NCBI GenBank assembly: GCA_951406725.2
Contig: OX597821.1
Location: 54,994,001 to 55,058,000, forward strand
Reading direction: 5' to 3'
DNA length: 64,000 nucleotides
DNA from: Octopus vulgaris
Lineage: Eukaryota
The notes beneath the pieces are model-generated. The model did not search any database. It saw nothing but the letters and a program-made list of their open reading frames with translations, and was not told where the DNA came from. Below are positions 3,850 to 50,428 of this stretch, one piece after another. A program made the translations under genes and the position numbers. Within the stretch, counting starts at the first letter, position 1. Each line of letters starts with the position of its first letter.

Positions 3850-4030
3850 TGGAGATTTTAGATATAATTATACTAATGTGTCCATCTGTTCTAATTTAAT
3901 TAAATTCTATGTCTTTCTGCTGCTGAAGATCGGTCTGCATTTTAAATTGATGTAAGGATTGCATTGTTCAATTAAATGGAGTTGCAGGAAAAGATCGTAC
4001 TGCATTACCTCTGGATATCCTTGTTGCTTA
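3850..4030 (+). mobile_element. PLE 3' terminal fragment with decayed hammerhead (3919-4003)
   Basis: CTGAAGA(3923)...GAAAA-GATC-GTA, then GGATATCCTTGTTGCTTATTTTGATT and (TA)n; homologous to 50345-50465, which lies downstream of a GIY-YIG relic. Confidence 0.7.
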
Positions 4031-4054
4031 TTTTGATTTTATATATATATATAT

Positions 4055-4435
4055 ATAAAATATGAATTAGAGATATAACCACTATTATGCAACTCAAACA
4101 GTGATAGACATAAACCAAAACATAAATAATAAATATAATATATTTTTATAAAACATATAACTAGATCTCAAAAGGTATAAAAATGATTAATCAATATATT
4201 ACTTATTACTTATTATATATTGATTATTCATTTTTATGCTTTTGAGATCTAGTCATATGTTTTATAAAAATATATTCTATTTGTTATTTATGTTTTGGTT
4301 TATGTCTATCACTGTTTGCGTTGCATAATAGTGGTTTTATCTCTAATTTATATTTTATAAATTTATATTGTGAAATTTGATTTAATACTAAATTGAATTT
4401 TCCCCTGTAAGTTTCGAGTTACACCCCCTAATATA
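4055..4435. mobile_element. Palindromic (inverted-duplicated) PLE-like terminal fragment in (TA)n
   Basis: Arms 4055-4200 and 4212-4360 are reverse complements (ACCACTATTATGCAAC / GTTGCATAATAGTGGT); the right arm continues to ...TACACCCCCTAATA-(TA)n, which resembles 37025-37080 in reverse. Confidence 0.7.
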
Positions 4436-6319
4436 TATATATATATATATTATTCATTGAAACTAGATTCAATTGTGTGATTTGAGTTTCATGTTACTGA
4501 TATGTTTATACTAGACTATGAAATGGCCTTCAACGGTAGAAACAATGCTGTAACTAGATCATTACAAGTGTGACTTCGTCCTTGACCCAGCTAAGAGGGC
4601 AGTAACTCTAAATAAGAACTGGTTGGAACCAGGTGACCCATCTAACCCATTTCAGCAGTGACAGTGGGTGCAGGTTAGTGATGATGATACACACAAACAT
4701 ACACACCCAAACACACATACATGTGTGTATTTACATGTAGTCTGGATGCAGTTTTATATAAGAAAGTGTCTTGTTTATAGTAAATGTAAACAGCGGTATG
4801 TAAATATCAAAATATAAAATATAAAATATGCACATATCTGGACTACGTCTTTTAGGTAATTCATATAGAAGTGGATTAAAAATAGACAGACATCATATTC
4901 TATAAATGTATTCTATAAAAACTGACAACTTTTGAGCAAGAAATAACTCAATCAAATAAAATAATCCTACACATATTGAGGTAAGAAATACAACTTTATA
5001 TTTCCATTATTTCATTATAATGCCAACATGATGTAATTATTAACTTACTTATACATATCAGCAATTCAATTAGCTCATCTTTGGGGAAGCTGTAGATTAG
5101 AATCTAGGCAGATAATTTTTTTGTAGAGATGATGATGAATCCTTCTTATTGTAGATAGATTTCAAAGAATATACATATATGCATACATATATATATACAT
5201 ACTTACATGCTTATACATAGATATACATGCATATGTATATATATTGTTTTATGCTGTCTGTCAATAATATATATTTTTGTTTGCTGGAAAGTTTTTACAC
5301 AATTACATTAATTTTCTCATCACACATTTATACTGTTAATACATACTGACACGCACACATACACATACACATACACACACACACACACACATGTCCAACC
5401 CATACCATCATGAGAAATGGATGTTAGATGATGATGATGCATATGTATACATACACACAAACACACTCTCACACATACAATATATGCATGTGTGAGTGTG
5501 TGTTCATGCAGAAATATTTATTTATTCATCACTCTTTTAGAAATATATATGTATGTCTGTACCTGGTTGCATGTAAGTCTGTACTGGAAGGCATGAAGGT
5601 AATGTGATGGATGCTCAACAAAACTGGAATAAAATTTATAAACAAGTGTTCAAATCATACTAAAGTAATCACTGCTTTTCCCATTTGAACACTATAATCG
5701 ATACCAGTAATATTTCAGAGAGAATTTTACCAACATTAGTAACTTATTCATTTTAATTCTTTATTTAAAATACATAATTATTAAACTGAAATTATAGTGA
5801 AATCTCTATGTAGACATTCTGTCTGTTAGAAAAACCAGGCAAAGGAACTTATAATGGCAACCTACCCACTTGAAAATTGAAGACACATTGAATAAGTTGG
5901 CCCTAAATACACAATACCTGAGAATAGGACATGACAGTCATGGATGGAACACCATTAATGATAAATGTGCTGGATCAGAGTTGTCGTGTGGCTAAACAAT
6001 AACAGAAGTGATGAACTCAGTATGTTAATCAATGTATAAATTTAAGATTGAGTAGTTTTAATTTTGTAATTGATTCAACTCATTTTTATTAGTTATCTAA
6101 ATGGGAGTATTGAACTGGCAGAATCACAAGAACTTAGGACAAAATACCTTGCAGTATTTCTTCTGGTTCATTATATTCTGAATTCAGTTCCCTTTCTGGT
6201 CAATTTTGCCTTTCATCCCTTTGGGATCAAGTAAATCAAGTTCTGAGGTCAATCATCATCATCATCATCATCATGATCATCATAATCATTATGATCATCA
6301 TTATTATTATGATGATCAT

Positions 6320-6600
6320 CATCATCCTATAATGTCCATTTTCCATGCAGGCATGTGTTGGACAGATTGACCAGAGATAGCAAACTGGTGACCTGCACCA
6401 GGTTCCAGTCTGATTTGGCTTGGTTTATATGACTGGTTACCCTTCCTAATGCCCCTAACACCAACTACTTTACAGAGTGTGTACTGCATGCTTTTAAAGT
6501 GACACCAACACAAGTGCCTTTACATGGAACTGGCACGAATGCTTTTACATGGAACTGGCACAAGTGCTTTTAACATGGCACCAATACAGGATCTTGCAGG
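6320..6600 (-). mobile_element. SINE family C (ATG/CAT tail), diverged
   Basis: (CAT)n followed by TCCATTTTCCATGCAGGCATG...CCCTTCCTAATGCC; internal TGCTTTTACATGG..CAC subrepeats. Confidence 0.75.
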
Positions 6601-7351
6601 CTGATACTCTTCATCAGGGAATGTGGGACCTTAATGCTTCCGCTGCAGAAACCCTCTACCCTCAAAATTGTTGACCTTGTGCATAAATTCGCTGTTATAC
6701 TCAGAAGATGATTGACAGAATCTTTAGTGAGTCGGACAAAATACATTTCAGCATTTCTGCCAGCTCGATACTTCCTGAATGAAATCTTAACTTTGCATCA
6801 CATTTTCCAGGGTCAATAAAATAAAACTCCAATCAAGTACTAAGGTTGATTTAGCTGGCTAACCCTTTCCAAGTTTGAGGCCTAGTGCCTATATTAGATG
6901 CAAAGACATATGGCCTAGCAGTTAAGATGTTGCATTCATGATGGTAAGATAGTGGTTTCAATTTCCTGACTGAACAGTGTATTGTGTTCCTGAGCAAAAT
7001 ACTTCATTTTACATTGTTCCAGTCTGCACAGGTGTAACTGAGTAACTTTTTGATGGACTGTCATCCCATTCAGGGAAATCTTATGATCTCAGTCATTTAT
7101 GAAGGCAAAGGCAGCTGTGGCTATTTGGTCACAGTGAGTGCTACCCTGAACTGAAAGCATCCAAATTAGTCTTGTGGAACCTCCTTCATGGTGATGTAAG
7201 AAGAGAAAAGTGTCATCACTCTTAGACTGACAATGTGATTGCAGACACTGACTTTCAATGTTTCTAGGACATTGAGGCAGTGGCGATGGACTGAGAAGTG
7301 TGGAAGGTAGACTTTGTTGCCACAGGCTGGGCTGGAACCTGATCGTAACAA

Positions 7352-48660: not shown

Positions 48661-49020
48661 AGTTGTAATTGTAGAATTAGATCAAGGTGTCCGGTATCTG
48701 GTTGGTGTCTAGTCCAAAACCTAATTTATAAATGTGCAGTAATGACTTCAAATAATAGCTATTTTTATTTTGGATGTTCGATAGATCTGAAAAACGCTTA
48801 AACAATCATTTATGTAGTTTTAGACTTAAACATAAGGTGGGTTGCACAATGATGTCTAGTAAAATTTGGGAATTGAAAGGAAAAAATATCGAGTTTAACA
48901 TAAAATTGGATATAATAAGGAAGGCACAGCCTTATAAAAATAGTAGAGATGGATGTGAACTTTGTTCTATGGAGTATATGAAATTTTGAAACATCGGAAT
49001 AATATAAACTTCTTGAATAA
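48661..49020 (+). pseudogene. PLE GIY-YIG endonuclease relic
   Basis: SCNCRIRSRCPVSGWCLVQNLIYKCAVMTSNNSYFYFGCSIDL /fs/ KRLNNHLCSFRLKHKVGCTMMSSKIWELKGKNIEFNIKLDIIRKAQPYKNSRDGCELCSMEY. Confidence 0.88.
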
Positions 49021-49491
49021 CCGTTTTGATCTAGGCGTATCCTGCGCACATTGTGTCACCTGTACTTTTAAGTATTTTAAATAATAGCATTCTGACTATT
49101 CCTAAATTTTCAAATCTTAATGTTTTGTAACAAAATAAGGAAATAATATACTATTCTAGTTTTTATTTAACCTGCGTAGATTATTAAGAAATTTAATAAT
49201 ATAAATAAATTGAATAAGGTGAAATAAAATCTTTTTAAACTTTTCTATATAGGATTGCATAAATTCCATATATTTAGTGAAATTATTAAGTTCATCTTGA
49301 TTACCTCCCTTCCATTACACTTTAAAACATTTTAGAGGCTCTTGATATATGTGATAATTGCTAAGTTTTTTTTTTATGCAGGAAATAAAAAATATGTCTA
49401 GCATATTCCTTTAATTTAACTCATTAATACAAATAAATTACTATTTACTAACTAACTATAAATCTATATTAATAATAATCTGATATAAATC

Positions 49492-49838
49492 CTAAAATCT
49501 TAAAAATGTTTTAACCCGAAGGCCGCGGCCATGCTGGGGCACCACCACTGAATAAGCTACACTAATATGTGAATCCACCTCTGATACATGGCACTTGATC
49601 AACAAGGGAGTTCGATGCTGCTGCCCGCATCTGCGTCTCCTGTCGTGAGGTAGGTTCATCTGGGACTCCCGACAAGAAGAGATCCAGTTTAGTTTTAAAG
49701 AAAACCACATCCACACCATGTAAGTCTCTCAGGCATTTAGGGAGGATGTTAAAGAGCTGTGGTCCTCTGAAACCCAAGCTGTTGCAGTATCTGGATCTGT
49801 ATTTTGATGGTGATGTTGGAATCTTTGGCACCATGCAC
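49492..49838 (-). mobile_element. CR1-group LINE 3' end nested in PLE
   Basis: NSLGFRGPQLFNILPKCLRDL...FKTKLDLFLSGVPDEP...AASNSL parallels the C-terminus of the 544-1722 ORF; 3' UTR GGTGGTGCCCCAGCATGGCCGCGGCCTTCGGGTTAAAAC. Confidence 0.88.
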
Positions 49839-50344
49839 TTACAAATATATATATTTTTATAAATATGAAATGACTTCTATACTCCCCATCTCTATATAAG
49901 ATACTAAAATTTATTAGAATCCTTTGGAAGAAACAATCTAAAAGATATTTATTTAAAATCACAAGTAAGATTATGGCTGTTAAATAGTAAGGACATTAGA
50001 AGTCTCTATTCTCCCTACCACATTAGCTTCCGCCTACTATAGCTGAAATATAGTCAAATGTACCAGAGTTAAATTCCTCATAAAAGGGATGGATTTAAAC
50101 TGCCCCTTCTGCTATCTACAAATAGAAAAATTCTTGATTGTTTCCACTGAACTTAATAGAAAAGCCCTGCCCCATTGGTAAATCTAAATAACAAAGTGAA
50201 CTCATTGATAAAAAATCTGCCCATGAGTTAAGATCTCCTACTACCATGTTTTTATTGATGAAAGTCACCTCTCTGTCTATATACCTACCCTCTTTGTAAT
50301 GTTGGAAAATGGAATAGGTATAAAAATTTTTTAAATTCCATATC

Positions 50345-50428
50345 TGGCTGAAGAGTGCTCTACATTTTAAAACTGATGTAATACTTACATTGTTTAATTA
50401 AATGAAGTAGCATGAAACGATTGTACTA
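50345..50428 (+). ncRNA. Type I hammerhead ribozyme, extended stem II
   Basis: TGG-CTGAAGA-GTGCT...AGCAT-GAAAC-GATT-GTA-CTA; core intact, stem I only 3 bp. Confidence 0.72.

Follow-up and report, generated by a model that had tools for sequence, protein, structure and literature searches.

The window analyzed here is a stretch of 64,000 nucleotides (nt) from the Octopus vulgaris genome (contig OX597821.1, positions 54,994,001–55,058,000 of the forward strand). It is microsatellite-rich with a GC content of 34%, and the host genome assembly that was searched comprises 2.8 Gb in 227 contigs. Ten sites in this window are related to type I hammerhead ribozymes and have a long stem II. These sites are copies of six dispersed repeat families (A–F), with spacers of 57–119 nt between the two core boxes and a 4-nt stem III loop. 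An earlier interpretation of the letters alone (the sequence-only reading) had listed about ten hammerhead motifs, and all are present to within a few bases, each in a dispersed repeat family. Taken together, the evidence presented below makes it probable that they are type I hammerheads carried by the 3′ terminal repeats of Penelope-like elements (PLEs), Hydra-clade-like in four of the six families, with a stem II that forms a predicted rod of 50–120 nt and with likely cleavage as dimers.

Hammerhead copies in the window and their repeat families

The exact pattern CTGANGA-spacer-GAAAC-loop-GTH has three matches in the window, at 12355–12431(−), 50348–50425(+), and 18454–18486(+). The last of these is a hammerhead with a short stem II (14 nt) that belongs to a separate repeat family and was absent from the sequence-only reading. 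Among the ten long-stem sites, two have an intact core and eight are decayed; the sites at 3923 and 13488 have one core substitution each, and the remaining six have at least two. The decay of several copies had been recognized from the sequence alone, whereas the type I core order attributed to all sites is exact only at 12355–12431 and 50348–50425 and otherwise holds for the majority sequences of families A–E.

Family A has an intact hammerhead at 12355–12431(−), with a 58-nt stem II, the loop AGCC (family state GGCC), and a predicted cut after 12355. It lies in an inverted, 5′-truncated copy of the element end (11994–12606, − strand) that has 92% identity to the 3′ terminal repeat region of the family at 13317–13927(+). 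A second hammerhead in this repeat region (13488–13563, +; 57-nt stem II) has a GAAAT substitution and the loop AGCT, a decayed GGCC. Family B is represented by an element remnant at 48646–50490(+), which includes a GIY-YIG fragment (48661–48974), a long 3′ untranslated region, and a terminal repeat; its hammerhead (50348–50425, +) has an intact core, a 59-nt stem II, the loop GATT, and a predicted cut after 50425. The family B′ hammerhead at 3923–3999(+) has a 58-nt stem II and the loop GATC. Three decayed hammerheads belong to family C, namely an inverted pair at 17753–17837(−) and 17929–18006(+), the latter with a 59-nt stem II and the loop ATAT, and a copy at 34899–34976(+), also with a 59-nt stem II. 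Families D, E, and F have one copy each. The decayed family D copy (19562–19642, −) has a 62-nt stem II and the family loop GGCC, and the family E copy (36812–36921, +) has a TTGATGA substitution, a 91-nt stem II, and the loop AATT. The family F copy (21079–21216, +) was taken for a half motif at 21205 in the sequence-only reading; it is instead a whole decayed copy with a stem II of about 119 nt and the loop AATT, and the first box is exact in two of its six aligned relatives.

The copies in the window represent truncated insertions that have mostly decayed, and they are dispersed rather than arranged in the tandem units of retrozymes. No loop-less minimal hammerhead was found in the window. 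A fuzzy match at 26660 was dropped because it had no relatives among the fetched loci. In addition, 9173–9222(+) has a weak match to a short-spacer hammerhead-like sequence from another locus (L212).

A first look at the genome gave 89, 1,717, 442, 59, 863, and 672 candidate copies for families A to F, respectively. The majority sequences of families A–E, each based on 20–29 aligned copies, restore perfect type I cores, and the stem I and stem III loop sequences differ from family to family. At the family level, the loops are GGCC (A and D), GATT/GATC (B), ATAT (C), and AATT (E and F). Because the majority sequences carry their own intact loops, the AGCC, AGCT, and ATAG found in the window represent decay and not family states; judging from the aligned copies, AC-GGCC-GT has given rise to AGCT and AGCC by CpG decay, and ATAG derives from ATAT. 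Part of the list on which the proposal of covarying palindromic loops was based thus reflects decay. Family B is young, with copies 95–99% alike. RNAalifold gave no useful structure for the family A copies, because near-identical decayed copies hold no covariation.

Penelope-like carrier elements

An open frame at 19961–20272(−) resembles a GIY-YIG domain, and a search with this frame led to an open reading frame (ORF) of 806 amino acids (aa), P0001, at locus L141. No Pfam family was found for P0001 or for the GIY-YIG fragment of the window. P0001 has the motifs DKT, YRDD, CxCX5C, YIG, CxxC, and CxH, and RWR is present in the N-terminal frame of a relative at locus L144. The Hydra clade of PLEs is characterized by DKT, RW(K/R), a CxCX5C linker, and CxxC plus CxH around a C-terminal GIY-YIG domain, and an octopus member, Hydra-1_Obim, has been listed (Craig et al., 2021, PMC8557442; here and below, this source, PMC4209133, PMC7229834, and bioRxiv 10.64898/2026.07.22.740005 are represented by selected parts). 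Besides the protein motifs, the octopus elements resemble this clade in their (TA)n targets, 3′ hammerhead, and inverted 5′-truncated copies (PMC8557442).

In the window, P0001 matches lie upstream of, and on the same strand as, the hammerheads of families A, D, and B, and they cover only the C-terminal part of the protein. For families A and D, they correspond to broken remnants of the linker and GIY-YIG domain of Hydra-clade-like PLEs, at 12815–13258(+) (tblastn, E 2e-23) and 19908–20283(−) (E 3e-15), respectively. For family B, the GIY-YIG sequence and the hammerhead are collinear in further loci, and family C is linked to a PLE ORF in 4 of 20 loci. The hammerheads are located 0.2–1.4 kb downstream of GIY-YIG sequence. 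These patterns support the identification of families A, B, C, and D as ends of Hydra-clade-like PLEs and agree with the PLE terminal-repeat origin suggested in the sequence-only reading. The diverging pairs 12355/13488 and 17753/17929 also fit the inverted 5′-truncated copies typical of PLE insertions, and loci L141 and L321 have (TA)n flanks, matching the insertion preference of the Hydra clade. In the upstream search for family E, a match was rejected as an unrelated repeat.

When the Hydra-like endonuclease was used as the anchor, a downstream hammerhead was found in 24 of 70 loci, compared with 0 of 70 for the reversed pattern, and all 24 of these hammerheads have a stem II of 50–96 nt. 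The P0001 hammerhead itself has a 50-nt stem II, with T-A in place of C-G at the stem III base. At L141, the near full-length ORF is located between two hammerheads, at 2272–2349 (upstream, loop AATT) and 5351–5419 (downstream, loop GGCC). These two belong to different families and have incompatible loops, such that dimerization between them is not predicted.

Retrozyme-like arrays of a non-coding unit of 534–535 bp are present at L321:896–3876 and L295:515–2394, with units that are 99–100% identical. Each unit contains a hammerhead with a 49–50-nt stem II, and an inverted 5′ copy is additionally present at L321. No data set recorded as RNA was listed as containing this array, but parts of it occur as contigs, with no circular joints listed, in four runs presumed to be RNA. 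In one of these runs, an adapter-like contig end lies 71 nt past the predicted cut, at a place where a template-switch artifact would be expected; none of this was counted as evidence for expression or cleavage.

Another type of PLE is represented by a very young family at loci L342–L370 (e.g., G000:C1:27840000–27849900). All 150 scored matches are 100% identical over 146 aa, many of them in 775-aa open frames, and the elements form head-to-tail tandems of 4,271 bp. The hammerhead of this family is short-stemmed and has CCGAAGA instead of CTGANGA in 10 of 10 copies seen. Judging from its motifs, the family is Neptune-like.

Genome-wide abundance, folding, and covariation

Strict cores were counted genome-wide in the GAAAC-N4-GTH form only, with the possibility that nested cores count twice, and compared with reversed-pattern controls, which do not preserve dinucleotide bias. 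The counts were 15,344 vs. 1,196 for spacers of 8–30 nt, 9,292 vs. 1,027 for 31–49 nt, 34,466 vs. 1,003 (34-fold) for 50–70 nt, 11,315 vs. 1,251 for 71–100 nt, and 3,504 vs. 1,608 for 101–130 nt. For a stem II of 50–130 nt, the total is 49,285 strict cores vs. 3,862 controls. Spacers of at least 50 nt account for 45,423 of the 67,836 cores in excess over control, or one per ~62 kb. The density of one per 6–7 kb in the sequence-only reading thus applies to this window with its decayed copies included, but not to intact strict long cores across the genome. Within the window, two strict structured matches compare with none in all 40 dinucleotide shuffles. With one substitution allowed, the count of two compares with a shuffle mean of 0.225 and was equalled by 1 of 40 shuffles, such that the shuffle comparison holds for the strict motif but is marginal for the relaxed one. 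The window excess is thin, and it is the genome count (34,466 vs. 1,003) that settles the question of chance.

For structural comparison, the loci of the first 100 listed matches with 50–70-nt spacers were examined, which correspond to 96 distinct matches in the first 7 Mb of contig C1. The stem III loop is a Watson-Crick palindrome in 56 of these 96 and is compatible with Watson-Crick or G-U pairing in 87. Stem I has at least 3 bp in 73 of 96, compared with 281 of 2,000 swapped pairs, and in 73 of 96 the predicted fold joins the two spacer ends, compared with 252 of 2,880 shuffles. The predicted stem II fold has a median of 19 bp.

Matches with spacers of at least 31 nt form 67 single-linkage clusters, some of which are chance matches, and 57 clusters have spacers of at least 50 nt. 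From each of these 57, one member was drawn at random for a covariation test of 11 pairs with 5,000 shuffles. All 11 pairs in stem I, stem II, and the loop exceed 5,000 of 5,000 shuffles, although these counts are not probabilities given that the clusters are mutually related. The first stem I pair is Watson-Crick in 47 of 57 clusters (18.7 in shuffles), the second stem II pair in 46 (17.9), and the central loop pair in 36 (14.3), with all four pair types present in the last case. The covariation anticipated in the sequence-only reading is thus found across clusters. Because the adjacent central loop bases are unable to pair in one hairpin, their covariation points to pairing between two molecules. 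Consistent with this, the 2-bp stem III of a monomer has a predicted energy of about +2.4 kcal/mol, compared with −6.4 to −14.1 kcal/mol for the 8-bp duplexes of Watson-Crick palindromes. Moreover, the wobble-compatible loop ATGT has 3,039 copies and its mirror-image mismatch ACAT only 364; since each is one transition away from ACGT or ATAT, this asymmetry fits selection on the duplex. A repeated family at loci L255 and L256 has the non-palindromic loop CGAG, for which a dimer would place tandem G-A pairs centrally.

Regarding stem II, a nine-member superfamily has two-sided changes at 7 of 12 pairs, reaching the 12th pair, and in the B/X superfamily covariation is seen in stem I and in the distal hairpin. 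A single unbranched rod of 13–33 bp is predicted in 31 of 32 well-formed families, a count taken after 25 of the 57 clusters had been filtered out. Across families that cannot be aligned with each other, stem II lengths pile up at 53–61 nt. Pseudoknot pairing between loop and flank, evaluated as base-paired contacts only, is not above shuffles (4.84 vs. 4.76 and 4.74). Likewise, base-paired contacts corresponding to the loop 1–loop 2 tertiary interaction of canonical hammerheads do not exceed shuffles.

Known hammerheads and competing explanations

The descriptor of Cervera and de la Peña (2014) for minimal hammerheads allows a stem II of 3–7 bp with a 3–10-nt loop and no loop 3, which sets an upper bound of about 26 nt for stem II (PMC4209133); the window copies fall outside it. 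No hammerhead is present among the 150 of 191 Rfam matches listed for the window, and at the Rfam gathering score there are 0 matches on 10 loci. Two of these loci are short-stem copies, which means that Rfam also fails to detect the short form. The claim of a multi-family form with a stem II beyond published descriptors, which standard searches would miss, is thus borne out by six families, and hammerheads in such genomes are probably heavily undercounted. In the giant squid, 235 hammerhead-1 loci are annotated by Rfam, which, coming from a different species, provides only a hint.

Metazoan PLE hammerheads, as described in PMC4209133, resemble the octopus copies in many respects. They share the CUGANGA/GAAA/NUH core, a short stem I, a frequent extra base after the first box, a palindromic helix III, and placement within terminal repeats, with multiple families in each genome and opposite-strand pairs 100–700 bp apart. 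They also cleave weakly in vitro and, as stated in the sequence-only reading, as dimers through the palindromic helix III. However, the rows seen of Fig. S3 in that source have a short stem II, compared with 50–120 nt in the octopus. Similarly, the hammerheads in File S2 for the Hydra clade differ by a stem II of ~10–26 nt (22 nt in Hydra-1_Obim), and by a stem III of 3–4 bp with a 1–3-nt loop (PMC8557442). Files S1 and S2 include long-armed exceptions, namely PLE-X1_sMoe, with a 51-nt stem II insert flagged as deviating, and PLE-X1_sTam, also with a long loop 2. In addition, eight Naiads, including the cephalopod Naiad_Ovul and Naiad_Esco, are marked HHR_half_core, with core halves 35–50 nt apart. 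In the parts represented here, these are single cases from other clades that are scored as lacking a canonical hammerhead and are not called a structured class (PMC8557442). Given this marking in File S1, Naiad_Ovul and Naiad_Esco may be long-stem-II hammerheads, and cephalopod PLEs scored as hammerhead-less may carry the long-armed form. Non-LTR (long terminal repeat) retrozymes, which derive from the terminal repeats of PLEs, consist of non-coding units that are repeated in tandem and bear type I hammerheads; the 535-bp arrays at L295 and L321 differ from them by a 49–50-nt stem II and, at L321, an inverted 5′ copy (PMC7229834; bioRxiv 10.64898/2026.07.22.740005). The same sources give 126,247 hammerhead motifs for the axolotl, so the octopus copy number is not a record.

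Thus, a palindromic stem III, cleavage as dimers, an association with PLEs, and large copy numbers have all been described before. The part that appears novel is a dominant long-stem-II form, for which isolated precedents exist (PLE-X1_sMoe and the Naiads). The variant is under-annotated, as had been suspected, in that it is missed by Rfam and the published descriptor, but its long stem II is not without precedent. Judging from its title and citing reviews, the work of Lunse, Weinberg and Breaker (2017) reportedly concerns PLE-linked variants that cleave as dimers. The Terminon hammerheads of Arkhipova et al. (2017) are said in citing reviews to involve relaxed descriptors and longer loops. 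No long-stem-II class is described in the literature surveyed on PLE or octopus hammerheads, a survey that did not include these two works, Dfam, or Repbase.

In the proposed explanation, two copies on one RNA, as in tandem elements or the 535-bp arrays, or on two RNAs would pair through their 8-base self-complementary stem III segments. The paired copies would complete two active sites and cut after GUC, GUA, or AUA, thereby processing tandem transcripts. The long stem II would fold on itself and keep each core open until a partner comes, and its sequence would be free to vary provided that pairing is kept. The two inverted pairs in the window are on opposite strands and therefore would not pair on one transcript. 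Cleavage of the anole PLE hammerhead is protein-assisted (PMC11167929), and by analogy the element's own protein may assist cleavage in the octopus. Dozens of families with different palindromic loops provide comparative evidence on the dimer model, as do the central-pair covariation and the expansion of wobble loops without their mirror mismatches. Constructs for studying the role of PLE hammerheads are readily available in the young copies and in the near-identical 535-bp tandem arrays.

Several observations weigh against PLE-borne hammerheads that cleave as dimers. Published PLE hammerheads are weak in vitro (PMC4209133), and cleavage in the anole element is dispensable for insertion in vitro (PMC11167929). 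Family E has no ORF link after 20 further loci, two of which, when extended, have Hydra-like fragments ~2.7–3 kb upstream without collinear support, and family F is not linked to a PLE ORF. Among the endonuclease loci, 46 of 70 have no hammerhead within 0.2–2.6 kb, and the 24 positives come mostly from one lineage. Of 143 long-spacer matches encountered at random, just 2 are preceded on their own strand by a PLE ORF match, because the sequence shared among most copies amounts to no more than a few hundred bases; most families are therefore tied to PLEs by architecture only. As for structure, distal stem II pairing is modest, with z below −2 in 49 of the 96 matches, and the consensus fold of the B/X superfamily does not reproduce the basal stem II. 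The ATGT excess stems from a few expanded subfamilies. Finally, the active monomer fold is 1.3–5.3 kcal/mol above the predicted minimum in five of five modelled real copies.

Alternatively, the ribozyme may be the same but the long stem II a tolerated, neutral extension, in which the basal 4–5 pairs alone matter and the remainder changes in length by slippage. This explanation is a serious contender, although we would not put it at even odds. Spacer lengths are continuous from 8 to 130 nt, listed AGCT-loop matches with a similar stem base have spacers of 21, 29, 49, and 61 nt, and no conserved complementarity between loop and flank is seen. However, compensatory changes extending to the 12th pair, the unbranched rod in nearly all well-formed families, and the clustering of lengths at 53–61 nt weigh against a neutral extension. 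The opposite extension of the dimer model is a tentative suggestion, which we consider doubtful: an undescribed long-armed class would be the main hammerhead with a stem III loop in this genome, making up roughly two thirds of the ~68,000 strict cores in excess over control, the rod a selected functional module, and the palindromic tetraloop of each family a pairing code by which dimer cleavage is confined to kin.

Another possibility is that the long rod serves to dock the reverse transcriptase/endonuclease of the element, either to help folding or to start reverse transcription, with catalysis being secondary. The anole hammerhead needs its protein to cleave, its core mutants still insert in vitro (PMC11167929), and rod length is steadier than rod sequence in the octopus. 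Nonetheless, dozens of clusters retain both the catalytic bases and a palindromic stem III, and published Hydra elements function with short stems, making this hypothesis unlikely. Less plausible still is cleavage as a monomer, in which the long stem II would stabilize the fold such that a 2-bp stem III suffices. In a young L141 copy (family X), the active monomer fold is just 1.3 kcal/mol above the predicted minimum, but central loop bases that are unable to pair within one hairpin covary, and wobble loops are 8-fold more common than mirror mismatches. Chance matches in AT-rich repeat DNA would be consistent with eight decayed copies of ten and the marginal relaxed window test, but they have a negligible probability in view of the 34-fold genome excess at 50–70 nt, the perfect cores of the family majority sequences, and the covarying stems.

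Other mobile elements are also present in the window. A 409-aa open frame at 493–1722(+) has a reverse transcriptase match (PF00078, E 1e-9) and represents a long interspersed nuclear element (LINE) fragment, and a broken mariner-type transposase gene is located at 35593–36307(−) (PF01359, E 2e-23).

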